Below are positions 6,963 through 64,000 of a stretch of 64,000 nucleotides of DNA, in pieces. Each line of letters opens with the position of its first letter. Position 1 is the first letter of the stretch. The notes below the pieces were generated by a model that saw nothing but the letters and a program-made list of their open reading frames with translations, ran no database searches and had not been told where the DNA came from. The stretch lies in the IMG/VR virus record IMGVR_UViG_3300032782_000010, positions 1,930-65,929 of that record, one strand, 5' to 3'. The stretch comes from a virus (taxonomy: Duplodnaviria > Caudoviricetes). The translations under genes were made by a program, and so were the position numbers.

Positions 6963-6963
6963 C

Positions 6964-7875: not shown

Positions 7876-7894
7876 AAAAGGAGAACTGTTTTTT

Positions 7895-8587
7895 ATGAAC
7901 AAGAACGTAAAACTCTTCCTTCGGTGGTTCGGGCTCGGCAGCGGCGTGCTAGCGATCGCGGTCATCCCTATTCTCGGTCTCACCCAGGCTGAGCACCTGA
8001 AGACCGTGAGCGCCGCGTCGACGAAGGTCGGTCGAGGTGCGCCTATTCAGGAGCGGACGGTCGCCCTGAACATGGTGAACGTGACTACTCGTCACTGCCA
8101 GAAGTATTCTCGCCAAACGCAGACAAAAAATGGCGATCAATACGTATGGACTTACGAGATAGACGCAAACGCTTGTGCTCAGGATTCATCGACGATCTTC
8201 TACTCGCACACCGATCACAACCTTCGAACCAATGCCGGCAGTGATGCACAGTCTTCGCAGATGGGCAACACTTCGACTCAGGCCGCTTCGTGCAATTACA
8301 TCGCATTGACCAACGATGCGACCGCTCCGTCCGCTACAGATACCACGCTGACGAGCGAGATTAGCACCAACGGCCTCGGCCGCGCGCAGGGCACCTACGC
8401 GCACACGACCGGGACAGCCTCGTTCACCGTGCAGAAGGTCTTCAGCGCGACCGGCACGCAGGCTAGCCAGAAGACGGGCCTGTTCAACGCGAGCTCGTCC
8501 GGCACTCTCTGCTTCGAGAACACGTACACCCAGGTCACGGTGAACAACGGCGACACGCTGACCGTGACGTGGACGATCAACATCTAA
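7895..8587 (+). CDS. putative virion appendage/fibre-base protein
   Basis: AAGGAG RBS; hydrophobic N-terminus; C-terminal GLFNASSSGTL...GDTLTVTWTI pattern common in phage structural proteins. Confidence 0.75.
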   Translation: MNKNVKLFLRWFGLGSGVLAIAVIPILGLTQAEHLKTVSAASTKVGRGAPIQERTVALNMVNVTTRHCQKYSRQTQTKNGDQYVWTYEIDANACAQDSSTIFYSHTDHNLRTNAGSDAQSSQMGNTSTQAASCNYIALTNDATAPSATDTTLTSEISTNGLGRAQGTYAHTTGTASFTVQKVFSATGTQASQKTGLFNASSSGTLCFENTYTQVTVNNGDTLTVTWTINI

Positions 8588-8752
8588 GAGTCTTGGGGGA
8601 AAGAGCGGCCTGGCTGGGTCACAGCCCCCTTCGCCAGGAGATGAGTCCAGATAATCTCGAGAGACTGCCGGACTAGCTTAAGGGACTCCCCGGCACCAAA
8701 AGAAGGTTCTCGAGAAGCCCTGAGTAGGATCGGAGACGACGAGAAACATTGC

Positions 8753-10948: not shown

Positions 10949-10958
10949 GAGAGATGTG

Positions 10959-11741
10959 ATGAGAAAGATTCTAAGTTCAATTCTTTGCTTGGCGTTAATG
11001 CTTGGTTTCTGTCAGGTCGCCGACCCGCAGTCTGGCTGCGTCATCCCAGCGCAGACCGCGCTCGTGAAGACGTCAAGCTATACCGGACTCTCCACCGATG
11101 CCGGGAAAATGATTGTCTTCAATTGCTCCTCGGCATGCACTTACACGCTGCCCTCCACGCCGCAATCGCCTAACTGGACCGTGTGGGTTGTCACTGAAGG
11201 AGCTGGAACGGTCACCATCAATCCGAATGGTCTGACGATTAACAATTCTTCTTCATCCTTCGATTTGCCGATCACGAGCGGATCCGGCGTCACGATTTCT
11301 ACGGATAACACGAACTATTTCGCGCATGGTATTAGGACGACTTACCATTCATGCGATATCGCTTTTGGAAGTACAAATGCCTCATCGGCGCTCGCGAATG
11401 CCGATCTTGGACCTCAATCGCGTGTCTGTTTTGTTCCTGCGGCCGGCACAGTCATTGAAGTTCGCGTGAACGCCGACGCGGGAACACCGAATATCATCGT
11501 GGGTCGCAATCGCGCCGGTACGGTCGTCAACCTGACCTCTTCGGCTCTAGCGACCGCCTCGTCCGGAGGGATCGCGTGCGCCGAGACCGGGACGACCTCC
11601 GCATTTGATGCTACGACTTGCTCGGCGACGTTGCAGAACACCGGACTCAATAAGGGGGATTACATCGAAGCGGTGAGCGGTACGGCGGGTGGAACGGCGA
11701 AGTGGATGGTCGCCCACATCATCTATACGACGGTGAACTAA
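10959..11741 (+). CDS. putative exported virion-associated protein
   Basis: AGGAG RBS; MRKILSSILCLALMLGFCQ leader; TYTLP/GTVTI fibre-like motifs. Confidence 0.75.
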   Translation: MRKILSSILCLALMLGFCQVADPQSGCVIPAQTALVKTSSYTGLSTDAGKMIVFNCSSACTYTLPSTPQSPNWTVWVVTEGAGTVTINPNGLTINNSSSSFDLPITSGSGVTISTDNTNYFAHGIRTTYHSCDIAFGSTNASSALANADLGPQSRVCFVPAAGTVIEVRVNADAGTPNIIVGRNRAGTVVNLTSSALATASSGGIACAETGTTSAFDATTCSATLQNTGLNKGDYIEAVSGTAGGTAKWMVAHIIYTTVN

Positions 11742-12446
11742 ATGTTCAGAAGACTTTTACTCTCAGCGATTCTTATTCTTTCTCAGCAAGCACGCATTCC
11801 CGGGCCTGGAGGATATAAACCATCTTCCGGAACTCTAGGTCCCGGAGCTACTTGCACCGGTCATGTCGCAGCCGGAGATGTGACTTGCATATTCAGTCCA
11901 AGTCTTAGCAGTGGCAGTATTCTTATTATCGGATGGGCTGCCGCGGGTCCTCCCACTGGATTCACCGTAACGGGTTGCGGGGCATCGTGGGCGAGTGATA
12001 CTTTTTCCCAAGATGCGAATAGATCAATAGGGACCGGTGCTTCTTCCGGAGCTTGTACCGTTACGATCCACGTTACCGCAGGAACGGATTCACAGAAAGA
12101 TGTCGCCGGGCTCGAAGTTAAGAGCAGTAGCGGAATTGACGATTCGGCTCACGGCGCTATCGCGGATCAGGGTTTTATCGCTACGCCGAATACGATCAGT
12201 TCTCCGAGCTTGACTACGACGGTTAGCAACGCCTTGGTTATTGGAATAGTTGTAGATTATAACGGAAACGGGACGACGTTCACGGCCGGTTCTCCTGCGA
12301 CTATAGCGGTCCAAACGAGTCAGGCTACTAATGTCAACGTCGCGATAGAGTCCTACACGAAAGCGACTGCCGGGGCAACGCAGCCGACTTTTACTTACAA
12401 CAGTAATTCTAGCTTTGCGACTGCATCGGCGGCGTTTAAACCATGA
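11742..12446 (+). CDS. putative exported beta-sandwich protein
   Basis: MFRRLLLSAILILSQQA leader; Gly/Thr/Ser-rich. Confidence 0.7.
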   Translation: MFRRLLLSAILILSQQARIPGPGGYKPSSGTLGPGATCTGHVAAGDVTCIFSPSLSSGSILIIGWAAAGPPTGFTVTGCGASWASDTFSQDANRSIGTGASSGACTVTIHVTAGTDSQKDVAGLEVKSSSGIDDSAHGAIADQGFIATPNTISSPSLTTTVSNALVIGIVVDYNGNGTTFTAGSPATIAVQTSQATNVNVAIESYTKATAGATQPTFTYNSNSSFATASAAFKP

Positions 12447-14488
12447 GGAAATTTTCTCTAATTGCGGCGATTCTCTTCTTCACTCCCTTCGCTCAGGCGG
12501 CAACACATTGGGTCAGCCCGACCGGAGCCGCGGCGTATGGAAGTTGTATGGGCGCGTCTCCGCTGAGCGGAACGAGCGCTTGTTCGCTCGGCACAGCGAA
12601 TGCAAATGCTATCGCCGGAGACCTTGTTTACCTGAGGGCGGGTACTTACAGCACCGGGGTAGCGCCAACGCACAGCGGTTCTAGTGGGAATCGAATCACT
12701 TTTCAGGAATATCCTACCGATGGCTCGCAAACGGCAATCATTTCTGGCGTCATCTATGGGATTGACCTTGAAGCTGTTTCCTATATCGTTGTGCTGAATC
12801 TGGAAATTCTCAATCCGACCGTGCATTGGGGGAACATCACCGAAGGTGCTCACCACAACGAGGTAGCTAATTGTCTCTTCTTGGTAACCGGCACCCAAAG
12901 CGCACCGTCTTTCTTCATCGGCCCAAATTCCGATCTTCTCTTCCCTACACATAACTGGATTCACAACAACACCTTTAGCTGGACTCCAGGGGCAAAGTCA
13001 GTTGGAACAGAAGGCGCTGGCTGTACAGACGGCGGCGGGGACGACCTAGACGTTGGACAGTCGGGCGGAACCTACGGCAACACGACGGGCGATAACAGCA
13101 ACAACAACTCGATTGAGAACAATATTTTCAACCACGCCCCTCACGCAGCGTTCGACGGATACGCCAAGTTCACGGTATTCAGAGGGAATATAATCAATAA
13201 CGAACCGTGGTCATCCGGTTGCTCAACCACGACGAACTACTCCAATACTCTCTATTCTAACTCGACTTACAACGGGAAGTACGCTCACAGAGACGCTCAG
13301 TTCACGGAAGACTTCAATCGCGACATGACTTTCAACTTGTTCGAGGGGAATCGCTTCGGCTACGCTGGCATCAATCAAGACAATGACGGCGCTGAGAATT
13401 TTGACCTCGCTACGGACGGCTCAATCCTTCGCTATAGTTTCTTCTACGCCTCGATGGGTTCCTGCCTTCAGTTCAAGTACACCAGAGGAGGTGGCGTAGG
13501 TGGAGGCGGAAATGGTGGAACCTACAACCGTACTTACAACAACACTTTCTATGATTGCGGAATTGGCTGGCCCCCTGCCGTGCTGGCAGTCGGAAGTGGC
13601 TGCAACACTAGCTCATGTCCATTTGCCGCGGTAGCCATCTCAAACTACATCGGCGGCTCATCCGGCTCGGCGCAGGGCAATGTAGTAAAGAACAACCTCA
13701 TCTATGAGCCGGATTCGCTTGGTCTCGCTACCTATCATGCCGATGCGATTGACCATAGTCCGGGAGGCTCTAGCCCTCCCTTCTCCCCTACTATTTCATG
13801 GACTGAATTTGCATCCGCCACAAACAACTGGTGTACTCAAGCGCAAACTTCTGGCGGCGCTTGTTCGGCTACTGGGAATCCCTTGTTCACAAATCCCGAT
13901 ATTACAACGCCATCCAGCATAACACTTCCAGACTTATCTCTTCAATCAGGCTCACCTGCCATCAATGGCGGAACATGGCTCACCACAGCGACAAACTCAG
14001 GTTCTAGCTCAACGACTCTAACTGTTGCTGACGCGCAATACTTCCAGGACGGAACTTGGGGGAGCGACCTTGCGAGGTTATCTGCTGGCCTTGGAGGAAC
14101 ATTCCAGCCGGATTGCATCGCTATCACGACGGTTACGAATACGGTCTGCATCGCCTCTATCACTTATGGAACATACAATGCTCCTGCGGGAACGGTCGCA
14201 CTTGCCTCGCCTATGACTTGGAGCAGTGGGGCGCATATCTGGCTCTACAAGAAGTCTGACGGTTCAGTCGTGCTTGCCGGCGCGGCTCCGGATTATGGTG
14301 CGAGTGAGTTTACCGGTAGCGGTGCTAATCAGAACGGAAGTTGTATGGAGAATCTGACGACGACAGCAGCCGCGTCCACTCAGCGGGCGCTCCACGTTAA
14401 TCCTTCTGAGATTTTGACGACGACATCTTCGATTTCTGGAACAAGTGGTCACCAAAATCTCTTCGCGTGTCACCCGGCGACACCATAA
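12443..14488 (+). CDS. exported right-handed beta-helix (pectin-lyase-like) protein, possible depolymerase or adhesin
   Basis: Signal peptide ending AQA; HWVSPTG, AGDLVYLRAGTY, Asn-ladder repeats, LQSGSPAINGG and APDYGASEF; lower GC. Confidence 0.8.
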   Translation: MRKFSLIAAILFFTPFAQAATHWVSPTGAAAYGSCMGASPLSGTSACSLGTANANAIAGDLVYLRAGTYSTGVAPTHSGSSGNRITFQEYPTDGSQTAIISGVIYGIDLEAVSYIVVLNLEILNPTVHWGNITEGAHHNEVANCLFLVTGTQSAPSFFIGPNSDLLFPTHNWIHNNTFSWTPGAKSVGTEGAGCTDGGGDDLDVGQSGGTYGNTTGDNSNNNSIENNIFNHAPHAAFDGYAKFTVFRGNIINNEPWSSGCSTTTNYSNTLYSNSTYNGKYAHRDAQFTEDFNRDMTFNLFEGNRFGYAGINQDNDGAENFDLATDGSILRYSFFYASMGSCLQFKYTRGGGVGGGGNGGTYNRTYNNTFYDCGIGWPPAVLAVGSGCNTSSCPFAAVAISNYIGGSSGSAQGNVVKNNLIYEPDSLGLATYHADAIDHSPGGSSPPFSPTISWTEFASATNNWCTQAQTSGGACSATGNPLFTNPDITTPSSITLPDLSLQSGSPAINGGTWLTTATNSGSSSTTLTVADAQYFQDGTWGSDLARLSAGLGGTFQPDCIAITTVTNTVCIASITYGTYNAPAGTVALASPMTWSSGAHIWLYKKSDGSVVLAGAAPDYGASEFTGSGANQNGSCMENLTTTAAASTQRALHVNPSEILTTTSSISGTSGHQNLFACHPATP

Positions 14489-14498
14489 AGGAGAAGAA

Positions 14499-14969
14499 AT
14501 GAAAATATTTTACTCAACCTTGCTTCTGCTAATCGGCTTACTCTTCGCGCTCCCGAGCTTCGCGGCGAACCAGCCCGAGCTCGGCGTCATCGTGAACGAC
14601 GCGAAGCCGGTGCTCGCCGGAGCTCTACCGTCGGGGACTCCGAAGACGCTCACGGTGACGCTGACGTTCGACTTCTCTCAGTCGAACGCCTGCTCGGCGA
14701 CGGTGACGACGGGGTGCGTCAAGCAGTTCAACTTCTACCTCTCGGGAGCCGGCGGCGCGAAGACGCTGCTCTTCTCGATCCCCGCGCCCTCGGGCGCGTC
14801 GACTCTCCAGACCCTGACGGTTACGAGCCCCACCGTGAGCTTGGCGCTCGGGAACAACACGATCCTGGCCACGGTGGCTACGCCTGACCCGTTGGAGTCC
14901 TCGGCTCTTAGCGTGGTGGTTCCGGTCCCGCCTAATCCGCTGATCTCGTGCACGATAACGCCTAACTAG
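14499..14969 (+). CDS. exported Ig/FN3-like protein
   Basis: AAGGAG RBS; signal peptide ending PSFA; C-x7-C pair. Confidence 0.7.
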   Translation: MKIFYSTLLLLIGLLFALPSFAANQPELGVIVNDAKPVLAGALPSGTPKTLTVTLTFDFSQSNACSATVTTGCVKQFNFYLSGAGGAKTLLFSIPAPSGASTLQTLTVTSPTVSLALGNNTILATVATPDPLESSALSVVVPVPPNPLISCTITPN

Positions 14970-14986
14970 GCGGTGGAGGAATTACG

Positions 14987-15358
14987 ATGGACCCAGCTTC
15001 TGCTCAAGACCTGGTCATCTCGCAGGTGACGTACTCGACGCTCGCGGTCATGGCGCTGCAGTGGCTGAAGAGGTCTCGGTTTGCGCCGTTCATCACCTTC
15101 GAGACCGACGCGCTCAACAAGATGGTCGCGGCGTTCTTCGCGGCGATGACCGCGGTCGGGATTCACGCTCAGTACGACAGCGTGGCGCATACGCTGATGA
15201 TCACTAACATCACCTTCATGGCGGTGGCGCACGGCGTCTGGCACTTCGTTCAGAGCTTCTCGTTCCAGGAACTTATCTACCACGGCGTTCTTAAGCCGAA
15301 TCCGGCTCCGGTCGTAGTTGCTCCCGTCGCGCCGGTGGTAAAGGAAGAGGGTAAGTGA
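14987..15358 (+). CDS. small membrane protein (holin-like)
   Basis: GGAGG RBS; 2-3 hydrophobic segments; QWLK motif. Confidence 0.6.
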   Translation: MDPASAQDLVISQVTYSTLAVMALQWLKRSRFAPFITFETDALNKMVAAFFAAMTAVGIHAQYDSVAHTLMITNITFMAVAHGVWHFVQSFSFQELIYHGVLKPNPAPVVVAPVAPVVKEEGK

Positions 15359-15708
15359 TCGTCTACTGGCTAAAGCGGCTAGCGGTTTATCTTCTTCGAC
15401 TCGTGCGCTCGCCCAAGAACGGCGAGCTCGCGTTCGTCGACCCGAACGAGAAGTGTCCGTGCTGCGGAGCTCGCGACGGCCACCTGCGCTGCGTGAGCGT
15501 GACCAATAATCAGCTCGGCTGCCAGCACACGTGCAACGTCTGCGGGTGCCGCTGGCTCGTAAAACCGGTGGTCGCGCTGACCTCGACGTGGGCCCAGCCG
15601 GGAGTAGCGAGAACGACGGTGGAGGAGAAGGAAGATCGTGCGCCGCTGCGCCTGTTGATTCCGCCCGCGGCGGACGCGGCAGTAGAGGAGAGAGCAAAGG
15701 CTAGCTGA
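15355..15708 (+). CDS. Zn-ribbon protein
   Basis: CPCC...CNVC; translationally coupled to its neighbours. Confidence 0.6.
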   Translation: MIVYWLKRLAVYLLRLVRSPKNGELAFVDPNEKCPCCGARDGHLRCVSVTNNQLGCQHTCNVCGCRWLVKPVVALTSTWAQPGVARTTVEEKEDRAPLRLLIPPAADAAVEERAKAS

Positions 15709-18155
15709 TGGCACCGAACAACAGTATCGTTATTCGCCCGATGACCGGAGCCGCCGCGGTCCTCGACCGCCTGACGCAGCCGCTCTACGAAGCGCCGGAG
15801 ACGGAGATCCGGGGGCTCGACCCGGCTCAGTGGGCGTCGCCTCTCCAGCCGATCAAGCCGATAGGCGGGCCGAATGCTGAGCCGCAGGCCTTTCAGCTCT
15901 GGGCGGGCCAGAACCTCATCTACACGCCTCGGCCGGACGCGGACCTCTCGGCGGCTGACCTGAAGGCCTTCGCGAGCTACCCACTGGCCCGGCTCTGCAT
16001 CGAGAACATCAAGGATATCGTCTGCGAGGCGCCTTGGGAGATCCAGCTGAAGAGCCAGCCTGGCGAGACGAAGGCTCAGGCGGCGAAGCGCGCGAAGGGT
16101 AACGAGGACCTGCTCAAGCTTAATCGGTTCTTCGAGCACCCGGACCGCGAGCACTTCTGGGACGAGTGGCTGCGGCTGGTGATCGAGGACCTCCTCGTCG
16201 GCGATTACGTGTCGATCTTGATACGCAAGACTTTCGGCGGGCAGCTCGTCGAGACGCCTCCGATCCGCGGAGAGATGATCACGCGGTACGTGGACGCGAA
16301 CGGGTGGACGCCGCTTGCTCCGGACCCGGCCTACGCTCAGCTCTGGTGGGGAATCCCGCGGGTCGACCTCTCGACGGACCAGCTCGTCTACAAGCCGCGG
16401 AACATCGTTCCGCGGAACACGATGGCGTCGCAGCTCTACGGCATGAGCCAGACCGAGCAGCTCGCGCCCGAGATCGAGATCGGCATACAGCGGCTCGCGT
16501 TCGTCCTCGCCTACTACACCGAGGGGTCGGTGCCGGGCGTCGTGCAGGTAGTACCGAAGGGAACGCCGCCGGACAAGATCGAGGAGGCGATGAAGTGGAT
16601 GAACTCAGAGCTCGCCGGCAACCTCGCGAAGCGCCGGCAGTGGCGTCTCGTCCAGGGCTTCAACGAGCCGGGCAAGGCTGACCAGATCGAGTTTACGAAG
16701 GAGGCGCTGCTCTCCGACCCGTACGACGAGAAGCACATGCGCACGCTCGCGTTCGGCTACGGAGTCAGCCCTCAACGACTGATGAAGCAGATGAACCGCG
16801 CGTCGTCCGAGCAGGCCGACGACGCTGCCGAGGTCGAGGGCGTTCGTCCTATCCTCGGCTACGTTCGCAACCTCGTCAACGAGATCATCCAGCGGCGCGC
16901 GGGCTACACCGAGTTTGAGCTGAAGATTGCTCCGCAGGATGAGCCGGACGCTCAGAAGCAGGCCGAGACGCTGACGACGTACGTCAAGAGCTCGGTGCTT
17001 CGGCCAAACGAGGCGCGCGAGAAGCTGGGCGAGGACCCGGACCCGGCCCCCGCGGCGAACGAACTCGGCGTGGTCACCGGCACCGGCTTCGTCACGCTCT
17101 CGCAGCAGCAGGAGCTCCACGAGGCGGCGCTCGAGACGCAGGCCGCGACCGCGGAGGCTCAGCGTAACCCGAAACCGGCGGTGGGTGCTCCTCAGGGGGA
17201 CGGGAAGGCAGGCGCAGCTGGAGAGTCTTCAGGGGGAGCGAAGAAGGAGCCAACCTCCGGTGACGATACGGCGAAGCTCATGAAGGGGCTGCTTCACGTG
17301 GTTCGTAACCACGAGCTCAGGAAGACCAAGAAGGTTCAGCCGCACGGCGTAGTGAAGGCGAAGATCCACCCTGGCAGGCTGACGACCGAGTCGATCGTTG
17401 CGAAGCACGAGCTCGAGCGCGTCGCGCAGAATCGTCTGCGGCGCATGGGCCGGATCGCGACGCGGGTTCTGAGAAAGAGAGTCGGTATCGCGACGAAGGC
17501 GAGCGCGGACGAGAACGCGGCGCTGCAGGAGATCCTCGACGAGCTCTCGGCCGAATGGCTGGCGCTCGCGGAGGAGGCTCGCGGTCCGATCGAGGACGCC
17601 TCGACGTCCGGCGCGGAGCTCGGCACGCTCCAGCTCGATATCACGGACGACGACCTCATCGCGAAGGTGAACGCGCAGGCCTCGGCCTGGGCCGCCGACC
17701 GGGCCGCGGAGCTCGTAGGCATGAAGCGAACGTCGAACGGGGACCTCGTCGCTAACCCGGACGCGAAGTGGGCGATCACCGACACGACGCGCGACAAGCT
17801 CCGGGAGATAATCGCGGACGTCTTCGAGATGGAAGCGCCGACGCTCGCGGATATCGAGCAGCGGATCATAGACGCCGGCATCTTCGACGACCAGCGCGCG
17901 ACGATGATCGCGCGAACGGAGGTCGCTCGCGCTCAGTCGCAGGCGAACCTGATGTCGTGGCGCGAGTCCGGCCTGGTCCTCAAGGTCAGCTGGCAGGTCT
18001 CGGCGGACCACGAGATAGACGACATCTGCGACGACAACGAGGACGAGTCGCCGTACGAGCTCGACAGCATTCCGGAGCACCCGGCGCACCCGAACTGCGA
18101 GTGCGTCATCACGCTCGAGCAGCTCAAGGGCGAGCCGGATGGGAGCGAGGAGTAA
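15708..18155 (+). CDS. portal protein fused to a MuF/head-morphogenesis domain
   Basis: YGMSQTE, YYTEGSVP, LRPNEAR portal motifs; C-terminal IARTE...PAHPNCEC MuF motif. Confidence 0.9.
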   Translation: MAPNNSIVIRPMTGAAAVLDRLTQPLYEAPETEIRGLDPAQWASPLQPIKPIGGPNAEPQAFQLWAGQNLIYTPRPDADLSAADLKAFASYPLARLCIENIKDIVCEAPWEIQLKSQPGETKAQAAKRAKGNEDLLKLNRFFEHPDREHFWDEWLRLVIEDLLVGDYVSILIRKTFGGQLVETPPIRGEMITRYVDANGWTPLAPDPAYAQLWWGIPRVDLSTDQLVYKPRNIVPRNTMASQLYGMSQTEQLAPEIEIGIQRLAFVLAYYTEGSVPGVVQVVPKGTPPDKIEEAMKWMNSELAGNLAKRRQWRLVQGFNEPGKADQIEFTKEALLSDPYDEKHMRTLAFGYGVSPQRLMKQMNRASSEQADDAAEVEGVRPILGYVRNLVNEIIQRRAGYTEFELKIAPQDEPDAQKQAETLTTYVKSSVLRPNEAREKLGEDPDPAPAANELGVVTGTGFVTLSQQQELHEAALETQAATAEAQRNPKPAVGAPQGDGKAGAAGESSGGAKKEPTSGDDTAKLMKGLLHVVRNHELRKTKKVQPHGVVKAKIHPGRLTTESIVAKHELERVAQNRLRRMGRIATRVLRKRVGIATKASADENAALQEILDELSAEWLALAEEARGPIEDASTSGAELGTLQLDITDDDLIAKVNAQASAWAADRAAELVGMKRTSNGDLVANPDAKWAITDTTRDKLREIIADVFEMEAPTLADIEQRIIDAGIFDDQRATMIARTEVARAQSQANLMSWRESGLVLKVSWQVSADHEIDDICDDNEDESPYELDSIPEHPAHPNCECVITLEQLKGEPDGSEE

Positions 18156-55257: not shown

Positions 55258-56028
55258 ATGTCGATACTCTCAGCCCTCTTCTCGTCACGACCAGTCTTCC
55301 TCGTAAGCTTCTTGCTCCTGTTTCTCGTCTTCCTCGCCGACGCAATCCTCTGCGTCCGCGCTGAGCGGCGCGTAGGGCGCAGGTGGTGGCTACGACTCCC
55401 GCTCGGCGGGTTCGTCGCGCTCGCCAAGTTCGGTCTCCGCATCGTAGTTCTCACCCTATTCTTCTTCATGTTCGCGGTCATGGCACAGGGGCAGGGCGTC
55501 ATCATCGCGCCGCAGTACCCGCCTCTCCCTGACGCCCCCGTGCCTAAGCCTGCCGCGAGCGAGCCGTTCGCGCCGAACAAGGAGAAGTGCTCGACGCACG
55601 ACCGGCAACTCAAGAAGCCTTGGACCTGGCTCGAGTCCAACATGTGCGACGCTGACTACCAGGCCTGGGTGAGGCCGCGCTTAGGCGATCGCTGGTACAA
55701 GGACAAGACGTGGTGGGCCGGTGAGACGCTCGGCGTTCTCCTGCCTCTCGCACTCGACGCCGACTCGACGATCAGGAACCAGAGCCAGGGCTGCATCGAG
55801 AGCAACCCGCTACTTGGCTCTCACCCGTCGAACGCAAAGATAATCGGGGTGACCGTCGTCGGAGCAGGAATCCAGACGACGCTCTACTGGCTCTCGTACC
55901 GGCTCTCGCACAACGACCCGTCGCGAACGTGGCGCATCATCGGGCAGCTCGGTGTCCCCGCGGCCGTGTGGTCGACCAACGGACGGTCGGCGATAAACAA
56001 CTACCAGCTTCACTGTGGTGGAAGATGA
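55258..56028 (+). CDS. membrane protein with LPDAP motif
   Basis: AAGGAG RBS; transmembrane segments; LPDAPV; ESNPLLGSHPS. Confidence 0.7.
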   Translation: MSILSALFSSRPVFLVSFLLLFLVFLADAILCVRAERRVGRRWWLRLPLGGFVALAKFGLRIVVLTLFFFMFAVMAQGQGVIIAPQYPPLPDAPVPKPAASEPFAPNKEKCSTHDRQLKKPWTWLESNMCDADYQAWVRPRLGDRWYKDKTWWAGETLGVLLPLALDADSTIRNQSQGCIESNPLLGSHPSNAKIIGVTVVGAGIQTTLYWLSYRLSHNDPSRTWRIIGQLGVPAAVWSTNGRSAINNYQLHCGGR

Positions 56029-57262
56029 TGAAGATGATCGAAGAGAGAATAGCCGCAACGAGAAGCGCGATCGACGCGATCGAGAAAGATCCCTCCGAGA
56101 TCAATGTCAGGCTTTTTTTAGCAAGAGGCGGGGAGCTAGCCGCCGCAGTCCTGAGTTCTATCGGCGTCAGAGGGTCAGTTACGTCGACAACCACCGTAAA
56201 GAGCGAACACGATTCTTCGCGTGATATACGATGATGACGCGCCTTCCCATCTCGATCCGCCTGCTCCCCGACCGGCACTGCCTCGGCGGGTGCGCCGCGC
56301 CGATGTTCGTCGAGGAGCGGACTGGGCTCTGCCTCGACCACTTTCACCTCTACCTGCTGACGCGCGACCGTGTCTCGAAGCTCGAGACGACCGCCGCAGA
56401 GAAGTTCACAAAGAGCGTCAACGACCTGCTCTCGCTCGACTCCGAGCAGGTCGAGGAGGCGACCGGGTGGCGGAAGCTGCTTCAGGGGAGGAAGAAGGGC
56501 TTATGAAAACTCAGATCAAGATATTCAGCGGCTTCAGCCGAGAGACTGTCGAGAAGAACGCTAATGAGTTTATGGCAACCGTGAAAGTCACTAGCGTCCT
56601 ATTTCGTACTACGTTCTGCAGCTTCGAGATGAACACCACGGTGCTGATCGTGTACGAGGTGGCGGCGTGATGCAAGACTACGAGCGTGACCTCAAGATAG
56701 AACGAATCGAGAAGCATCTCGAGAAGATCGCCGCGAACACTCGAGGCCCGAGCCTCACGGCGTCTATCACCGCCGTCTTCACGGTGCTCATATTTTTAAA
56801 GCTAAGCGACATCCTGATCATCCTCACCTGGATAAAGGAGCACTGGAAACTATGAACGACCGAATCAAGACGACGCCTATCAGCTACCGCGAGCTGAGGC
56901 CGTGCGCCTCGTGCGGCGGAGCTCTCGGGATAATCTTCCACGAGGTGACGACGAAGCTCTGCGTCGTCAACCGCGGAGCCGTGGGCCGAACGCTGTCGCT
57001 CGCGAGCTACTTCGGTAGCGGACGGCCCACCGGCGCGGGCTTCGCGCTCGCTCAGGCGATGGGGCCGGACGGCGACAAGGCCGCGGACCGTTCGGAGGAC
57101 CCAGCGACGACCGACCGTATCTTCCTCTGCAACGACTGCTTTCACGGCGTTCGTCTCAAACCAGGTGAGACTCGAGCGTTGGGACTTATCGTCGCGGCGT
57201 CGCGCGAGAAGGAGGAAAGAGATGGAGAACAAGCTCGAGCCAACGACTCGTTACGAGCGTGA
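56025..57262 (+). other. run of five small coupled hypothetical genes (56025-56234, 56231-56506, 56503-56670, 56667-56855, 56852-57262)
   Basis: Successive ATGA/GTGA overlaps. Confidence 0.55.
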
Positions 57263-57554
57263 GCTGATCGACAACCTGCAGGAGGAGCTCGCGGAGCTCG
57301 TCGCGATCGCCTCGAAGGTGAAGCGCTTCGGCGTCGACAGCGACAACCGCGGGAAGATGGACTACACGAACAAGCACCTTCTGACGATGGAGATGGCCGA
57401 CGTCCAGGTGATGCTCGACCTCGTCAAGCGCTACTACGAGATCGAAGCGACGTACTTGGCTAACTGCATGGACATAAAGGTCGACAGTCTGCGTCGGTAC
57501 TCGAGCCTCTATCCGGTGCTGACGAGAAGTGGCGAGGTGGGTCGTGAGAAATAA
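57222..57554 (+). CDS. MazG-like all-alpha NTP pyrophosphatase
   Basis: LQEELAEL...SKVKRFG...EMADV; AAGGAGG RBS. Confidence 0.7.
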   Translation: MENKLEPTTRYERELIDNLQEELAELVAIASKVKRFGVDSDNRGKMDYTNKHLLTMEMADVQVMLDLVKRYYEIEATYLANCMDIKVDSLRRYSSLYPVLTRSGEVGREK

Positions 57555-57558
57555 CAGG

Positions 57559-57924
57559 ATGTCGGAGAACATCGTCGTCCCGCTCGCGAAGATAGTTGAG
57601 ATGCTAGGCGGCCTGTGCCCCGCGTGCATGGACGAGCTCAGGCGAAGGCTCGACGAGGCGAGCGTCAACCTCGTCAGGACCAACGACACCAGACTCCAGA
57701 AGGTGCTCGACGACGTGTCGCGGGAGACGGGAGTGCACGTTCTCGATATCGTCTCGCGGCGCATCGCCCCTTCGATCGTCGACGCGCGAAGGCTGGTGGC
57801 ACGAAGAGCGAAGGGCATGGGGTACTCGTTCCCAGAGATAGGCAGGCTGCTCGATAGGCACCACGCCACGATAATCAATCTCATATACTACCCAGGGAGA
57901 AAGACCGTGAAGGAGGCGTCGTGA
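57559..57924 (+). CDS. DnaA C-terminal-like HTH protein
   Basis: IVDARR...YSFPEIGRLL.RHHATII. Confidence 0.75.
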   Translation: MSENIVVPLAKIVEMLGGLCPACMDELRRRLDEASVNLVRTNDTRLQKVLDDVSRETGVHVLDIVSRRIAPSIVDARRLVARRAKGMGYSFPEIGRLLDRHHATIINLIYYPGRKTVKEAS

Positions 57925-58481
57925 GAAGATATCTGGACTTCGCATTACGATTTATGAGTAGCAAGCACGTTAGGAGAGCGCTGTGGGCGATCGTAGTCAC
58001 CGTCTTCCTACTCGACGTCTTCTCGTTCGCGCTATTTCTCGAGAAGAAGAAGGGCAAGCCGGCTTACCGAGGAGAAGACAACGGGCTCACCGTGCCGTTC
58101 ACGTCGAAGGTGCCATCATCACTCGAGTGCCCGACCTGCCCGACGAGCCGACCGCCGGACGCTACGGTGATCCCCAAGTCCGCGGTCGTCACGAGCATAA
58201 CCTCGCACCCCACGACCACGCTCTTCTCGTACCCGGACGAGGTCTACCTCCTGACGAACGGGGGCTACGCGCTCGTCTACCACGCTAACAAGCGGACGGG
58301 GATGGGCGAGACGACGGTCTTCCGCGGCGACCTGCAGTACAAGTCTTGCTTTCCGAACTCGTCGAGCGCGAACGACCAGACCTGCCAGGAAGCTAGCCGG
58401 ATCGTGAAGCTCTGGGAGCCCAGCACGTCGAGCGTGAAGGTGGAGAAGGAAGTGATAAGAACGAAGGATGAAAAAGAATGA
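57921..58481 (+). CDS. membrane-anchored hypothetical protein
   Basis: AAGGAGG RBS; one transmembrane segment. Confidence 0.6.
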   Translation: MRRYLDFALRFMSSKHVRRALWAIVVTVFLLDVFSFALFLEKKKGKPAYRGEDNGLTVPFTSKVPSSLECPTCPTSRPPDATVIPKSAVVTSITSHPTTTLFSYPDEVYLLTNGGYALVYHANKRTGMGETTVFRGDLQYKSCFPNSSSANDQTCQEASRIVKLWEPSTSSVKVEKEVIRTKDEKE

Positions 58482-58985
58482 AGCGAATTGGAAAGATTAG
58501 CGTCGGGCAGCCAGCCCCAGGCGGGGAGAGAGGAATAACGATGAGCGATACAGATGTATTGAAATCCTTTGACGCGCAAGATTGGGCGAGAGAATTTACG
58601 CGAATCGCCGCCTCAAAAGGAATCGTGGTTGACGAGGATTGGATGGCTACATGGTTCGCCAATGCCTTAATGCGTGGATACGATGAGCATCGCTGGCAGT
58701 CCAAAGAGTATAGGCGCACCATCAACCGGATACTTTTCCCTTGGTGGCATTGGAAACATTGGAGCGCAACGCGCCGCGAGAAAGGTCAAAGCAGATGAAG
58801 AAACTAGTCGCGTGGTTGACAAATGGTAGACCAATGACGCGAATCGCTTATTGTTTTATGGATTGCGTAGAAAAGAAACCTGTTTATTTCTGGCGCGATT
58901 TCTACGGAAGAAACTGGCTCGCCACATCAAAGTGGGGATGGTTTCGCGTCGAGCCTATCCACGGTCCTGAGATTTGGAGCAAGTG

Positions 58986-59300
58986 ATGACCCCAGAGGAA
59001 CTGAGGGAACGGGCGCAAAAGTTAGACAGATCTTTTATTGTGGGATTTGCTGCTGCTGTTGCCGCCGTCGCAAGAGAGTACGGGAGTCCAAACAACATGG
59101 AACCATATATGGAAAGAGTAATCACAGAAAAAGCTGAATTAGATGACAAAATCAGCAAGTTGGAAAATTTCATCTTTCGCAGTGGAGGAAAGTGGTTCGA
59201 TGTTCACGACGCCGAAAGGCTTCGTATGGTAAAGCAGTACTGTCATATGCGGGATTACTCCACAATCCTTGGTGAACGTATTGCCAATTTCAAGTCGTAA
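58986..59300 (+). CDS. MTPEELRERA-module protein with crAss001_48-like C-terminal domain
   Basis: ERVITEKAELDDKISKLENFI...Q...M.DY..IL.ERI pattern. Confidence 0.6.
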   Translation: MTPEELRERAQKLDRSFIVGFAAAVAAVAREYGSPNNMEPYMERVITEKAELDDKISKLENFIFRSGGKWFDVHDAERLRMVKQYCHMRDYSTILGERIANFKS

Positions 59301-61294
59301 GCCAGGGCAAGGCAGCGGCGGAGAGGTATAGAAAGGGCTGAACATGGTTCCACTGTGTCTAAAATGTCTTAGTCGTATGATTCCCTGTCACGATAGTGAA
59401 TGGCTGGATTGCCCGAAACGCTGCGTACTTGGAGCGGCAGCCGAAGATTGTTTGTATCCGCAACTTATAGGAGGCAATGATGAACCCAGAAACAAATCAG
59501 TTCGAGCAACTCCCCGCGAACGTGCAAGCCCCTGAAGGCTGGATAGAATTCGCCATCGGGGAAGAGGTCACGGTGAAAAATTACCGCTTCAAGATTAAGC
59601 GGGTTTCAGCCCAAAGACTTGTGTTAGAACCTCTAGGCGCAATTTGCACGGCAACGAATAGCAAAAAGTGACGGGCGGGCTCGGTACGGGGAAGCCAGGG
59701 CCAGCCTCAAGCGGAAAGAGAGGAAATGTGTCATACGCGATAAAGGTAATTGACAAAGAGAATGATGAGGAAGGTTTTGTGTGCGATGGAATGAGCGACA
59801 CGCCGACACGCTACTCATCTAAGCGAAAGGCTCAAGAGTTCGCGGAGTTTATGCGAATTGGCATGGAAGAGAAGATCATTGTTGTGCCGTACCCGCGCCG
59901 CGAGAAAGGTCAAAGCAGACTATGAGCAAGAAAACGCTAAGCATCGAGCAATGTGAGAATGGCTACATCCTACGCGAAGAACATACATTCGCTTCTCGCA
60001 CAGTTGTTTACAAGGAATTAGCTGATTTGTTCGGAGAACTTCTTTTGCGGTTTGAGGGCAGGTGTCCGTCCTTTGGCGGTAATTCATACGGCGAAGTAGC
60101 GATATTTCGAGTAAAGGAAAAAGGCAAGTGATGACCCCAGAGGAACTGAGGGAACGGGCGCTGGCGTACCATGAGCGCCGCGAGAAAGGTAAAAGCAGAT
60201 GAGCGAGCCTTTTGAGGAAATTATTCCTGAAAGTGATGCTTGGCATGTCTGCGGTTGCGGTTGCACTCGCGCTGAGCACGATGAAGTTACGGGGAAATGC
60301 CTTTATTGTTTTGAGGATGATTGTGGCGGCTTTGAATATGATGAAGAAGCGACAGTCATTGCTGCCACAGAAATAGAGGATTTGCCATGACCCCAGAGGA
60401 ACTGAAGGAACGGGCGCAGAAATGGCGCGAGCAAGCATTGGGGAAGTTCGGCGAAGAAACAGACCCTTTGATTGACCGCTCATTGGCTGATTTGCTCGAA
60501 CAAGTAGCTGCGGAAGCGCGGCTTGATGAGCACGACGCAGTTTGCGCGAAGGTGAGCGTTATCCATGACGGGTACCAAAAGCTGACAAAGGGATGCTGCG
60601 AGCAATATCCCTGTCCGCGTCGAAAAGCGCTGGCAAAACAAAGCGGGAGGGGCTGATGAGCGATACCACTAAAGCAAGCCTGCGCATAGTCACACCAGAG
60701 CAATTTCAGCAAGGATATTTTGCCTTGGAAAACGGAATTATCACCAACAAAAAATATGTTCCACTGAAGAAACTTGCTGATGGGAATTGGGTAGTCCAAG
60801 AACCACTTCGCAAGGAGGCTAGGCAGTGACCGACCTTAGAAAACAGGTGGAGGGGCTGGTGAACAAGCAGCGATTTGAAGCGTTCATAACAATCGACTTG
60901 GGCGATAGCGGGGAATGGTCGGCGGGAGATTTGCAGCGAACTATCCAGCATGAACTAGGCGATTGCACTGAAGTGGTTGTCAAGCCTCTTGCCGAACCAG
61001 TCGAGGCGGGAGCGGGGAAATGAGCGATAGTCGCACGGATGGAGAAATGATTCATCTTAGTCCATTGCAACCGTTGACCAGAACGGCTCTGCATAATTAT
61101 AGCGACAAGTGGGGCTATGACGAATGGCTAGGAGACCGTACTTGGATTGCGGCGGAAAAATTTGCTTGGCTTATAGCCCTATTGAAATTAGAAGAAGACA
61201 AAGAGGAACTGTTTCCTCATGGAAAGTGGGCAACGATTCAGCATATGGAAAAACTCTTAGAGGAATGCTTGAAAGAGTATAGGAGTGTACGCCG

Positions 61295-62095
61295 ATGACC
61301 GACCTTAGAAAACAGGTGGAGGGGCTGCGAGAACTGAGCAAGAAGTGGCGAAATTATAAGCCAACTCCCTACGAGCGAGAAGCACAGCCAACTGGTTATA
61401 TTCGAGACACCTATACAGCTTGCGCCGACGAACTCGACGCCCTTCTTGCCGAACCAGTCGAGGCGGGAGCGGGGCAGCTAGTCATAGAGAAAATCATTGC
61501 TGAGTTTCGAGAGTTGGCCGATGCCAAGGAACATGAATTTGAAACCGACCCAGAAGTTTACGATGATTCGTTTGAAACCTTGCGCTACTGCGCCAACGTA
61601 ATCGAGGCACGGCTGGAAGGAAGTACACTGCCACTCGGCGGGGATTGGATTAAAACGCAGGCAGCTAAGAACATAAAAGCACAAAAGAAACACGAAGAAA
61701 CCATGATTTCGGCTTCTTTACTAGAGAATCTTGTCCTTAAAAATTGCGATTGGAAAGAAATTGCCAGAGTTCTTTCAGTGGGCCGCGAGGAGCTGCCCAT
61801 CCCCCAACGCGCACGCGACTTCGAGGCAGGCTTTCAGACGGGAGTGAAGAAGCAGGCGGCGCAGCAGGCACTAACAAGCAAACAAGCTGAAGATATTCAC
61901 CGCATTATCGAGCGCCACTCAACCGATGTTGTGGATTACGAATTTGCGGCAGATGACATTTCCGCTTACCTGTACGGTGGAATTGTGCGCGAGGAGCCGC
62001 CAGTATATGGAGCGCTGGCCATCTGCCAAAAGTGCAATCGCTCAATGCGCTGTCCTCACTGCGAACCGGATTGGTCTGAAAGGAGAGGACGATGA
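61295..62095 (+). CDS. mosaic module protein
   Basis: Built from modules shared with the ORFs at 60826 and 62323. Confidence 0.7.
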   Translation: MTDLRKQVEGLRELSKKWRNYKPTPYEREAQPTGYIRDTYTACADELDALLAEPVEAGAGQLVIEKIIAEFRELADAKEHEFETDPEVYDDSFETLRYCANVIEARLEGSTLPLGGDWIKTQAAKNIKAQKKHEETMISASLLENLVLKNCDWKEIARVLSVGREELPIPQRARDFEAGFQTGVKKQAAQQALTSKQAEDIHRIIERHSTDVVDYEFAADDISAYLYGGIVREEPPVYGALAICQKCNRSMRCPHCEPDWSERRGR

Positions 62096-62322
62096 GTTGG
62101 ACTAAAAATTTTCTCCAAATTTGGGGATTTTTGCTGGCCCTTGTGGGGATAGTCTGCATCCTAGTTGAAGAAGATAAAGAGGAATTGTTTCCTCATGGAA
62201 AATGGGCAACGATTCAGCGTATGGAAAAACTCTTGGCAGACTGCCTAAAAGAGTATAGGAGCGTACGTCGATGATAACAAGTTCAAAGCCGCGCTGGCAA
62301 AACAAAGCGGGAGGGGCGGGAC

Positions 62323-63642
62323 ATGAGTAAACGGAAATGCGTTCGCTGTAAGGGGGAGAACTCAGTCTTAATTCAAGATAAGACTGGACGCTGGATGGAA
62401 GTTCCTTGCCCAAAGTGTGATGGTGGGAGAAAGCGAATGACCGACCTTAGAAAACAGGTGGAGGGGCTGCGAGAACTGAGCAAGAAGTGGCGAAATTATA
62501 AGCCAACTCCCTACGAGCGAGAAGCACAGCCAACTGGTTATATTCGAGACACCTATACAGCTTGCGCCGACGAACTCGACGCCCTTCTTGCCGAACCAGT
62601 CGAGGCGGGAGCGGGGCAGCAGATGGAAACTGCTGGATGTGGACAGCATGAAAGGGATAAAGAAATACTAAAAATGCTAGACCCTGAAATTACTTTCTAT
62701 GGCCCCTATGCTTGTGGGTGCGGAGATACGATATGCCGAGCATCTAACGCACAAGGTGGAATGGCGTTTGATTATCCAGCAACCCCAATCTACCCGAATA
62801 CGAATTGGATTCAGCATGTCTGTAAACCCCGCACAGGATTCTTGCCTTACGATAAACAACAAGAATTGAATGAAAAGCTACATAGAGAACATGGTGAATT
62901 GCCATGCGAATCGGGAACTTGCCGAATTTGTAATGAACGGCGCGAAGAGCCTCTCATCCCCCAACGCGCACGCGACTTCGAGGCAGGCTTTCAGACGGGA
63001 GTGAAGAAGCAGGCGGCAGCGCAGGCCAAGCGCGAGGAGCCGCCAGAATGGCAGCTAGAAGCCAGCGCACAAGCACACGAATGGCTTTGCGGCAACTTTA
63101 ACGAAAATTTCCCTCTTAATGGCTCATCGCACAAATCGCTCACGAAACTGCTAATCAATTTCGCCAGAAACTCTGCCTTGGTGCGCGAGGAGCCGCCAGC
63201 AGGGGAGCCGCGCCGCGACTATACGCTTGTACCAAATAGTGCCCTACGTTGGCTATTTGGCGAAGAGGGAATATTTGAAGATCCAAATCCTTCAGGAAAA
63301 TATAAACGGCCATATTGGTGGCGCAGTGAGTTCCGCAAAAAGATTGAAGTGGGAAATCATATATTACATCACTTTGATCCTGAGATTCACGAATCATGCT
63401 GCCATCAAGAGAATGGTAAGACATGCAATCGGACTGATGCTCACTCGCACACAGCCGCCCTCGCTACCCACGAAGCAGGCAAGGAGAGCAAGCCTCCCGA
63501 TCCCACCGCCGAGCGCCCTGTCTGGATTCGCGCCATTGCTTTGCCCCAAGGGCCAGAGCAAAACTGTGTTAATGTCCGCGTCCGCGACGACGCGAGCGAG
63601 AAACTCTTTGTGATGGAGCCGGAAGACGTAAGGGAGGATTGA
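62323..63642 (+). CDS. mosaic module protein (alternative start 62437)
   Basis: MTDLRKQVEGL, LAEPVEAGAG, IPQRARDF and REEPP modules. Confidence 0.7.
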   Translation: MSKRKCVRCKGENSVLIQDKTGRWMEVPCPKCDGGRKRMTDLRKQVEGLRELSKKWRNYKPTPYEREAQPTGYIRDTYTACADELDALLAEPVEAGAGQQMETAGCGQHERDKEILKMLDPEITFYGPYACGCGDTICRASNAQGGMAFDYPATPIYPNTNWIQHVCKPRTGFLPYDKQQELNEKLHREHGELPCESGTCRICNERREEPLIPQRARDFEAGFQTGVKKQAAAQAKREEPPEWQLEASAQAHEWLCGNFNENFPLNGSSHKSLTKLLINFARNSALVREEPPAGEPRRDYTLVPNSALRWLFGEEGIFEDPNPSGKYKRPYWWRSEFRKKIEVGNHILHHFDPEIHESCCHQENGKTCNRTDAHSHTAALATHEAGKESKPPDPTAERPVWIRAIALPQGPEQNCVNVRVRDDASEKLFVMEPEDVRED

Positions 63643-63644
63643 CG

Positions 63645-64000
63645 ATGCAGGTTTTTAACGACATAACTATCTTCTTCTCCTTAACCGGGACCCGACTCGA
63701 GCTACCGGCGGAGTGGTGCCACGTCACGCTGGGATTCAGGCGCGAGAGGCTCGTCGGGCGAGCGAGGAACTTTCGCTGGCACTCTCTCGAGGAGTTGCGC
63801 GCCGACATCGAGCTCCAGGTGGGAGACTTCGACGACCTCTATCCGACGGTCAGCTTACTCGAGAAGGACGATCGCAGCGTTCTCCTCGAGGTGGCCCTCT
63901 GTCAAGACGTCGATCCGCTCAGGCCTAGAATCAAGAGCCTCCGAGAGCAGGCGAGAGAACGAAAGAGAGGGAGAACGCTTCTTATGGATGTTATTCTCAA
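63645..64000 (+). CDS. hypothetical protein, truncated by the window end
   Basis: GGAGG RBS; frame open to the end of the window. Confidence 0.55.
   Translation, partial: MQVFNDITIFFSLTGTRLELPAEWCHVTLGFRRERLVGRARNFRWHSLEELRADIELQVGDFDDLYPTVSLLEKDDRSVLLEVALCQDVDPLRPRIKSLREQARERKRGRTLLMDVIL

Follow-up and report, generated by a model that had tools for sequence, protein, structure and literature searches.

In a 64,000-nt stretch of phage DNA (the window; bases 1930-65929 of the 65,929-base virus record IMGVR_UViG_3300032782_000010), we found an island of 16 small genes with low third-position GC content (GC3) in which gene junctions, and also the domain junctions of two long genes, are occupied by short repeated coding modules. 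The island (genes g01-g16) spans positions 58510..63642 on the plus strand, as do all features described below, and contains nine repeat families with 22 copies in 5 kb. The explanation that we consider reasonably probable is that the island is a duplicated, translationally coupled array which has been reworked by short-homology recombination or gene conversion at these junction modules. The source is an uncultured tailed phage from a wetland. The record is classed as linear with an estimated completeness of 43%, and since the window ends at base 65,929 the island is at the contig's 3' end.

Repeat families and their locations

The left part of the island is organized around families D10, A, and B. 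The two D10 copies (58510..58535 and 59700..59725) are 85% identical over 26 nt; the first carries a ribosome-binding site and lies upstream of g01, the second upstream of g06. The 28-nt copies of family A are 93-96% identical with an exact core of 26 nt, and each consists of the eight final codons of a gene followed by a GAGAAAGG run and an ATGA overlap. The first copy (58771..58798) comprises the last eight codons of g01 (RREKGQSR) together with a ribosome-binding site and the ATGA at which g01 overlaps the start of g02, while the second (59895..59922) and third (60175..60202) join the end of g06 to the start of g07 and the end of g08 to the start of g09, respectively. In family B, copy 1 (58979..59016) comprises the last two codons and stop of g02, a TGATG overlap, and the first ten codons of g03 (MTPEELRERA). 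Copy 2 (60124..60161), at the g07/g08 junction, matches it at 38 of 38 positions, and a third copy of about 32 nt (60387..60417; 97% identical) forms the start of g10.

Families C and F both consist of a gene end with a GGGAGGGG-like run directly ahead of the next start. The first C copy (60627..60653) encodes the end of g10 (ALAKQSGRG) and the ribosome-binding site of g11. Copy 2 (62291..62317) is identical at 27 of 27 positions and supplies the ribosome-binding site of g16, but lies outside every open reading frame (ORF) and is a fossil gene end. Family E (32 nt, 100% identical) occurs at 60827, 61296, and 62438, and its first copy (60827..60858) is the start of g12 (MTDLRKQVEGL). Family F (31 nt, 100% identical) occurs at 60987, 61444, and 62586, with the first copy (60987..61017) providing the end of g12 (LAEPVEAGAG), a ribosome-binding site, and the ATGA overlap with g13. 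In g14 and g16, E and F are the two ends of a single tract of 184 nt (E-mid-F; 61295..61478 and 62437..62620), the two copies of which are 100% identical; the first forms the first 61 codons of g14 and the second codons 39-99 of g16, where it continues the frame of a preceding zinc-ribbon segment.

The remaining families lie in the right part of the island. The two 108-nt copies of G, 89% identical, form the C-terminal half of g13 (61191..61298) and the C-terminal 36 codons of g15 (62167..62274), which is a truncated g13 paralogue with a new hydrophobic N-terminus. Among the codons affected by the 12 differences between the copies, seven are synonymous and three non-synonymous, and G is under purifying selection as a protein. 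H and I are found inside the long genes g14 and g16, between recognisable domains. The H copies (61784..61869 in g14 and 62941..63026 in g16) match over 86 nt at 92% identity around a 63-nt core, at 61798 and 62955, that is 100% identical. The three copies of I are 17-19 nt long and 100% identical; they encode V-REEPP in g14 (61985..62003), K-REEPP in g16 (63030..63046), and again V-REEPP in g16 (63181..63199) just upstream of a domain that we refer to as the YTLVPNSALRWLFGEEG domain, and REEL/REEP variants begin both H copies. Internal in-frame starts behind the I linkers were considered and rejected, as the ATGs there are out of frame. The resulting gene architectures are E-mid-F, an unrelated body, H, a body, I, and a CxxC zinc-ribbon tail for g14 (61295..62095; 266 aa), and zinc ribbon, E-mid-F, the X3 domain (see below), H, I, a further body, I copy 3, the YTLVPNSALRWLFGEEG domain, and a C-terminal module for g16 (62323..63642; 439 aa).

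A preliminary description of this DNA had listed all of these families except D10, and each was present at or within a few bases of the positions given there. Several details changed. The positions of E and F were correct, but their continuity as one identical tract in g14 and g16 had been missed; E is indeed a gene start at 60827 and 61296, though not at 62437, where it is internal to g16 behind the 38-residue zinc-ribbon segment. The C repeat at 62291 is real, whereas the coding gene end described there is not, as no ORF contains it. G had been read as a linker, which our results did not uphold: it is the C-terminal half of a member of a real protein family that is under purifying selection.

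Repeat density and placement at gene junctions

The longest exact repeat in the island was 184 nt, compared with a mean of 11.6 nt and a maximum of 14 nt in 100 shuffles. Repeated 20-mers numbered 243 in the island and 0, 11, 0, 0, 0, 0, 0, 0, 0, 0, and 1 in 11 other chunks of equal size, and direct-repeat pairs numbered 13 in 56001-64000 as opposed to 0, 2, 1, 0, 0, 0, and 0 in the other seven 8-kb chunks. All non-self matches (n=15) were confined to 58770-63199. Among 35 other phage loci from IMG/VR that have genes for the X3 domain, each had 0-4 direct-repeat pairs and 23 had none. The region had previously been called unusually dense, a characterization that holds against both the rest of the window and these 35 loci. 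Elsewhere in the window, the 11 repeated 20-mers fall in 5166-10330 and the 2 direct-repeat pairs in the 8001-16000 chunk.

The repeats are also placed non-randomly. Eleven of the 15 junctions among g01-g16 are ATGA or TGATG stop/start overlaps (-4 or -1), and 10 of these 11 lie in a repeated module (P = 3e-6 under random placement); likewise, six of the nine families are located at such an overlap junction (P = 3e-5). D10 and C copy 2 sit just upstream of three further starts, and a purine run of the Shine-Dalgarno kind is present in every module. The modules therefore straddle gene junctions, in agreement with the earlier suggestion that linkers carry the Shine-Dalgarno sequence and the stop/start overlap for the next gene. 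Twelve of the 16 island genes begin with ATGA, either as ATGAGC (Met-Ser), ATGACC (Met-Thr), or, in g02, ATGAAG, and it is this ATGA start that supplies the overlapping stop of the preceding gene. Three genes (g01, g11, and g13) begin with ATGAGCGAT (MSD); the ATGA starts noted are at 58541, 60656, and 61020, and also at 59922, 60199, 62092, and 62323.

Evidence for recombination at the junction modules

The edges of the repeats are abrupt. Repeat cores were 85-100% identical, while the adjacent 30 nt on each side were only 7-43% identical. Identity within the modules extended to third codon positions (B 38/38, C 27/27, E 32/32, and F 31/31), and the three REEPP copies used the same five codons, for which P was ~2e-5 given the codon usage of the island. 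The gene bodies between the modules were mostly unrelated, with z-scores against shuffles of 1.2 or less in seven of the 10 body pairs compared, including g02/g07 (-0.9), g02/g09 (1.2), the bodies of g03/g10 (0.1), the middles of g12 and g14 (-0.9), and the F-to-H intervals of g14 and g16 (-0.2). The earlier statement that like linkers surround unrelated bodies is thus supported by the shuffle comparisons.

The order of the linkers is itself repeated, with D10-A-B and G-E-F-H-I each occurring twice, so that tandem segmental duplication must be part of the history of the island. Divergence between the duplicated copies is uneven: in the right-hand units G and H are 10% divergent, but the intervening 184-nt tract has 0 differences (P = 2e-9 at a uniform rate), which argues for later conversion or exchange. 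Individual junctions tell a similar story. F ends g12, yet continues in frame in g14 and g16, while E opens g12 and g14 but is fused in frame behind the zinc ribbon in g16. The 23-codon ORF g08 (60131..60202) consists of B, 13 nt, and A only, and preserves the chain of stop/start overlaps between g07 and g09. These footprints (the untranslated C copy 2, g08, the run-on of F, and the fusion of E) fit a picture of recombination.

Taken together, the abrupt edges, synonymous identity, uneven divergence, and unrelated bodies call for gene conversion or recombination at the linkers or close to them. Exact tracts measure 26, 38, 27, 32, 31, 63, and 184 nt, with 17-19 nt for I. Minimal efficient pairing segments are given in PMC3945230 as 23-27 bp for Red-beta and 31-34 bp for RecA, lengths that the exact tracts of 26-38 nt match. 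Because all repeats are direct, recombination within one genome could yield only deletions, duplications, and circles, and the swapping of a body would need a partner genome or a circle with the same linker, as has been suggested for the PeSL cassettes of T4-type phages (PMC2839356). Scans of the larger ORFs of the window against Pfam and PHROGs found no integrase, invertase, reverse transcriptase, or homing endonuclease, consistent with the earlier remark that the system operates without an integrase. The recombination reading in the preliminary description accordingly stands in part: exchange or conversion at or near the linkers is supported, but a cassette system that swaps domains at present is not.

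Modules and domains in other phages

The support from outside the window is of an indirect kind: three modules of the island recur elsewhere in other contexts, and one other phage locus (L052, below) has a junction repeat of its own around a g13 homologue. A search with g16 returned 250 proteins at E <= 0.001, and among the 150 listed about 130 matched only residues 100-190. These residues include a small Cys/His domain, designated X3 (62620..62847; g16 residues ~100-175), which lies between F and H at a place where g14 is unrelated. Its consensus is FYGPHxCxxCG...IYPNTxWxxHxC, or more fully FYGPHxCxxCG..ICKAS.EQGG..FDYP.GPIYPNT.W..H.C. X3 occurs alone, in proteins of 60-110 residues, or in many fusions, including with a conserved C-terminal domain of ~110 residues, and is encoded in 35 IMG/VR loci (L011-L045). 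No Pfam, PHROGs, or NCBIfam model corresponds to X3, and an AlphaFold model (pLDDT 76.9) had no Foldseek match in the PDB at E <= 0.001 (best E = 2.2). The second domain, defined by the pattern YTLVPNSALRWLFGEEG.F....YWWRSEFRK (63187..63354; g16 residues ~289-344), is likewise unannotated. It was matched by at least 13 proteins, and in most of the 11 examined, which are otherwise unrelated, it is at or near the C-terminus (it is not C-terminal in P0007 and P0016). A protein atlas look-up with g16 residues 270-350 gave a top score of 0.83, which is at chance level. In addition, P0044 shares 64% identity with the middle of E-mid-F, and the N-terminus of P0055 corresponds to the C-terminal 43 residues of g16.

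Exact repeated 5-mers were found in 12 of 51 g16 homologues of at least 150 aa; excluding proteins of the window, the figure was 11 of 49, compared with 39 of 1020 shuffles. Several g16 homologues, among them P0029, P0007, P0011, P0028, P0008, and P0025, are strings of small domains (zinc ribbons and X3), each protein having its own repeated peptide between them. The clearest case is TPPQP in P0029 (4-6 copies), and others are QINAP (P0007), SGPDRT (P0011), and AALAQP (P0028), with PAQQAQ and ARAASST in the set of homologues that includes P0008 and P0025. A CESGTCxIC motif follows X3 in g16 (residues ~175-210) but precedes it in P0009, and an LP.DKQQELN tail follows X3 in both; this shift hints at an ancestral tandem X3 array that is read in a different phase.

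Full-length homologues of g13 were present in six IMG/VR loci, which had no other gene in common with the window (35 window proteins tested). Like X3 and the C-terminus of g16, g13 exists as an independent unit outside the island. In L052, a repeat of 21-27 nt has four copies in 2 kb (596, 926, 1851, and 2458), three of them marking the end of a gene or immediately preceding a start. Of these three, two bracket the g13 homologue (641-964), and one includes an ATGA overlap. Within L052:590-2490, three genes end in a ...TPSAPPR tail encoded by the repeat, and the gene after the g13 homologue opens with MSD via an ATGA overlap, in the same way as g01, g11, and g13 of the island. Homology between the A linker and the L052 repeat was considered and rejected, because too little is shared (GCGCCGC, the purine run, and ATGAGCGA). 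The g13 homologue of L053 has a 22-nt repeat at its 3' end, with another copy 97 nt upstream of the gene. Perfect tandem duplications were observed in two unrelated IMG/VR contigs, at L013:4415-5456 (521 nt) and L054:14754-16583 (~920 nt), and may be assembly artefacts or true repeats.

We also searched for relatives of the island itself. Neither blastn with 58478-63642 nor tblastn with g13 gave any match against 50,697 phage records. In IMG/VR, exact and degenerate E patterns had 0 hits, and scans for related loci with g16, the neighbouring DUF2130 protein, and P0044 found none. A degenerate B pattern identified five loci there, but these represent one unrelated family whose members merely start with MTPEELRERA, in genomes with 34-36% GC. 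A scan of JGI metagenomes with alignment A1 produced 599 pattern matches with no relative among them, and a degenerate H pattern had 0 matches in the same metagenomes. Species genomes yielded no phage relative and only five distant DUF2130 homologues with 32-38% identity.

Proposed history and alternative explanations

Under the explanation that we favour, the block would be a hyperplastic accessory-gene region that is read as one translationally coupled chain. The junctions of its genes, and the domain junctions of its two long genes, would be built from coding modules of 17-38 nt, each encoding a hydrophilic tail or leader peptide, with junction modules also providing the following gene with a Shine-Dalgarno-like purine run and an ATGA or TGATG overlap. 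Its history may have begun with tandem duplication of multi-gene units (D10-A-B and G-E-F-H-I), followed by recombination and gene conversion in which the modules provided short homologies for the replacement, deletion, or fusion of bodies. Since a module spans a junction in frame, an exchange inside it keeps both reading frames and their coupling; such recombinants survive, and the modules persist and spread. The preservation of both genes by in-frame modules may be why the modules persist. The replacements would then have occurred by homologous exchange at the modules rather than by illegitimate joining beside them, and the block would amount to an in-frame cassette array without a recombinase of its own, relying on general short-homology recombination. 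The acting enzymes would presumably be of this general kind, exchange may be continuing today, and the pattern may extend to other phages.

Several results weigh against this explanation. No short direct repeat was found in 23 of the 35 X3-gene loci, which implies that the architecture is not general, and no repeat surrounds the g13 homologue in four of the six loci that encode one (L051, L054, L055, and L056). A relative of the island was absent from all collections searched (phage records, IMG/VR, JGI metagenomes, and species genomes), and a sequencing run from another study (X2) showed the same arrangement as the window wherever the island was covered. No recombinase was recognised in the window, which belongs to a contig that is ~43% complete. 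The short linkers have a GC content of 0.647 compared with 0.477 in the unique parts (0 of 20,000 random placements reached 0.647), but this may follow simply from codons for Glu, Gly, Ala, Pro, and Arg, in which the linker-encoded peptides are rich, and from the purine-rich ribosome-binding sites, as the purine runs account for part of the high GC of the modules. A reading of the high-GC linkers as native and the low-GC bodies as foreign was suggestive only and was rejected, being confounded by the amino acid composition of the linkers. Finally, faint similarity between bodies was detected for g01/g06 (z = 4.9), g07/g11 (z = 4.3), and g07/g09 (z = 2.9), so that part of the array may consist of old paralogues that have diverged beyond recognition.

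The last observation leads to the alternative that duplication and divergence alone produced the island, with selection keeping the ribosome-binding site, the overlap, and the first codons alike in old tandem paralogues and no recombination at the linkers. The twofold occurrence of both linker orders, the similarity of g01 to g06 and of g07 to g11, the purifying selection on G, and the resemblance of g15 to a truncated copy of g13 all agree with it. Selection on signals does not explain third-position identity over 27-38 nt beside neighbouring codons at random level, or 0 differences in 184 nt beside modules that have diverged by 10%, nor why the widespread X3 domain occupies the place of unrelated sequence in a paralogue, and we consider duplication alone unlikely. 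The repeats could instead be functional signals, such as leader peptides for sorting or packaging (MTPEELRERA and MTDLRKQVEGL), perhaps in the manner of T4 capsid targeting, proteolytic sites (REEPP), or operator sites in the mRNA. The inter-domain peptides of the g16 homologues are in line with this, as in P0029, P0026, and P0028 they lie directly at the domain edge, a placement that would suit a site recognised by a lineage-specific factor. But the identity is at the DNA level and goes beyond the peptide, C copy 2 is kept though untranslated, and some repeated peptides among the 12 homologues are not linkers (LRAML, AEHDR, and AELLR); moreover, no protease or regulator is linked to the island, which has no family matches to suggest one, and no Rfam match. 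Such signals are quite improbable as the whole explanation, though they can be compatible with a duplicated array reworked by recombination. A dedicated mechanism, in which an unrecognised nuclease or recombinase from the missing part of the genome or from the host cuts or pairs DNA at the linkers in a true cassette system, would account for the exceptional linker density and for an excess of GCGC in 58478-63642 (38, compared with 19.4 +/- 4.6 in shuffles), which is found at the left edge of every A, C, and I copy and at the right edge of every B copy. As copies share their edges by descent, the GCGC result rests on only four or five independent edges, and the excess may be due to chance or to Arg and Ala codons. 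GCGC and the purine run are the only motif common to the families, no attC- or sfx-type inverted repeats were found, and the enzymes sought were not found among the larger ORFs of the window, all of which makes a dedicated mechanism very unlikely.

We regard it as highly improbable that the island is an assembly artefact in which strain variants with short identical stretches were chained into one contig. The concern arises because this is a metagenome contig whose 184-nt exact repeat may exceed the length of short reads, and an independent assembly of run X1, which is probably the source (it holds 98% of sampled words, compared with 25% for X2), breaks at each repeat so that no single piece spans the island. 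X1 also contains a 553-nt contig of lower depth with pieces of H, I, and the sequence from 63457 onward but other sequence or other spacing between them. This contig could represent an allele that has diverged, a variant carrying different inserts, or a paralogue from the portion of the genome that is missing. On the other side, the X1 assembly consists of error-free pieces ending at B, E, and F, and its contigs 60132-60856, 60829-61016, 60988-61324, and 61298-61473 have 0 differences and overlap within the repeats as true repeats would. The E-mid-F piece has the highest depth (20.1, with neighbours at 8.5-12.9), which fits two copies, although these figures are rough. A single X2 contig is identical over 59909-60239 (A2-g07-B2-g08-A3), and two others, 61753-62145 and 62122-62272, cover H1-I1-g14 end-g15 and are identical to the window. 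Nor would a chimera be expected to show an unbroken chain of stop/start overlaps across the whole block. In the worst case, the assembly may have exchanged the bodies that follow the two E-mid-F copies, and the finding would still stand. Contig gaps in X1 (~59.0-60.1 and 61.9-62.4 kb) and in X2 do not imply that the sequence is absent, and a hint of sub-populations from piece depths of 8.5-8.8 and 12.4-13.5 was too rough and was set aside.

Comparison with known systems

Integron cassettes and shufflons are repeat-bounded arrays of exchangeable units that depend on structured or inverted sites and on a dedicated tyrosine recombinase. No integron attC sites were found in the island, with only two weak and distant inverted repeats; every repeat family is direct, and shufflon-type inverted repeats and a recombinase were not found in the window. 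Cluster K mycobacteriophages reportedly have start-associated sequences, in which a single 13-bp motif that presumably acts in expression is repeated upstream of some translation starts. That motif is not known to span stop/start overlaps, and the island modules differ in forming a coding set that spans them and brackets unrelated bodies.

The preliminary description likened the island to the mosaic ea22-type regions of lambdoid phages, a putative resemblance. A closer parallel is offered by the short conserved boundary sequences of these phages, for which PMC3029335 cites Susskind and Botstein (1978) and Clark et al. (2001). In that account, short conserved stretches at gene boundaries have unrelated flanks and are proposed to be exchange sites that keep genes intact, as we propose for the island. 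In contrast to the lambdoid boundaries, the linkers of the island are repeated within one genome, are coding and in frame with a stop/start overlap, and are also found between domains. The lambdoid case, as cited there, is defined by linkers common to different genomes; for the island linkers, no second genome was found in the phage records, IMG/VR, or the JGI metagenomes. In the Cluster I mycobacteriophage Island3, an inserted orphan gene of the gp67/gp68 pair shares ~18 C-terminal residues (~50 bp) with the gene upstream, and the authors interpret the junction as recombination between short gene-end sequences, described as the first mycobacteriophage example (PMC3029335). The same signature is seen in A, C, and G and in the repeats around the g13 homologues of L052 and L053, but gp67/gp68 is presented as a single event in a phage pair, while the island has many families and copies in one block.

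The PeSL cassettes of T4-type phages are described as intergenic elements of ~100 bp with a sigma-70 promoter and a terminator stem-loop, and recombination between direct copies is proposed to delete, insert, or circularise the genes that they flank (PMC2839356). The island resembles this description in that orphan genes of a hyperplastic region lie between short repeated modules that carry expression signals. The island modules differ in that they are 17-38 nt long, translated, and located within ORFs, with signals for translation instead of transcription. Promoter-like sites (6, compared with 4.5 +/- 2.1 in shuffles) and terminator-like sites (11, compared with 8.1 +/- 3.3) were not in excess in the island, and none on the plus strand coincides with a linker. 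We conclude that the island is neither an integron nor a shufflon, nor an array of PeSLs. Its anatomy is firmly established. What is new is the density of modules in one genome, their nature as in-frame coding sequences with stop/start overlaps, and the formation of gene and domain boundaries from the same kind of module; the idea of exchange at short conserved boundary sequences is already old.

Genomic context and island genes

The contig is an orphan, with no relative in the collections searched. Pfam and PHROGs scans of the window identified a primase, a large terminase, a portal, tail proteins, and an SNF2-type helicase, as well as Pam3 gp33-like, Pam3 gp34-like, and DUF2130 proteins; no tRNA genes were found in the window. 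The island is flanked on the left by a backbone gene (57921-58481) and on the right by g17, from 63645 onward. GC content was 0.49-0.55 across 58-64 kb and ~0.61 over most of the window, and GC3 was 0.34-0.62 in g01-g16 compared with 0.73-0.82 in the flanking genes, confirming the lower GC that had been described for the island.

Searches of Pfam, PHROGs, NCBIfam, and PADLOC left 15 of the 16 island proteins without a match, and Rfam gave none at E <= 0.1. The sole exception was g03 (58986..59300), in which the B leader is followed by a crAss001_48-related domain (PF21825, residues 43-104); its other matches were to PHROGs families of unknown function. A large-database search for g12 homologues found none. 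Altogether 13 of the 16 proteins had neither a family match nor a homologue, the exceptions being g03, g13, and g16, with large-database searches made for g12, g13, and g16 only. The 63-residue CxxC-rich ORF g04 (59344-59535) and g05 (59477-59671) overlap by 59 nt in different frames; one start or gene call may be wrong, or the overlap may be real.

Implications for phage mosaicism

It has long been asked whether phage genomes become mosaic through homologous exchange at short conserved boundary sequences or through selection acting on random illegitimate joints. The island is a rare case in which such sequences are abundant, in frame, and linked to translational coupling, and it could serve as a natural test bed. 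The linker lengths suit known short-homology recombination, and all expected kinds of product (replacement, fusion, near-empty unit, and fossil gene end) lie side by side. Given an isolate or relatives, the rate and products of linker-to-linker exchange and the interconversion of gene and domain boundaries would become measurable. The analysis also flags two widespread, unannotated small phage domains, X3 and YTLVPNSALRWLFGEEG.

A broader and more speculative possibility, which we offer tentatively, is that short lineage-specific coding linkers act as portable adaptors for building and rebuilding arrays of mini-genes and beads-on-a-string proteins. If so, each linker would unite a flexible peptide, a stretch of homology sufficient for short-homology recombination, and a ribosome-binding site plus stop/start overlap. 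A given junction could act as either a gene or a domain boundary, and exchange, fusion, and fission would all stay in frame and expressed. The island would then be the densest example so far, and L052 and the g16 homologues with TPPQP, QINAP, and SGPDRT peptides would be further examples of recombinase-free shuffling.

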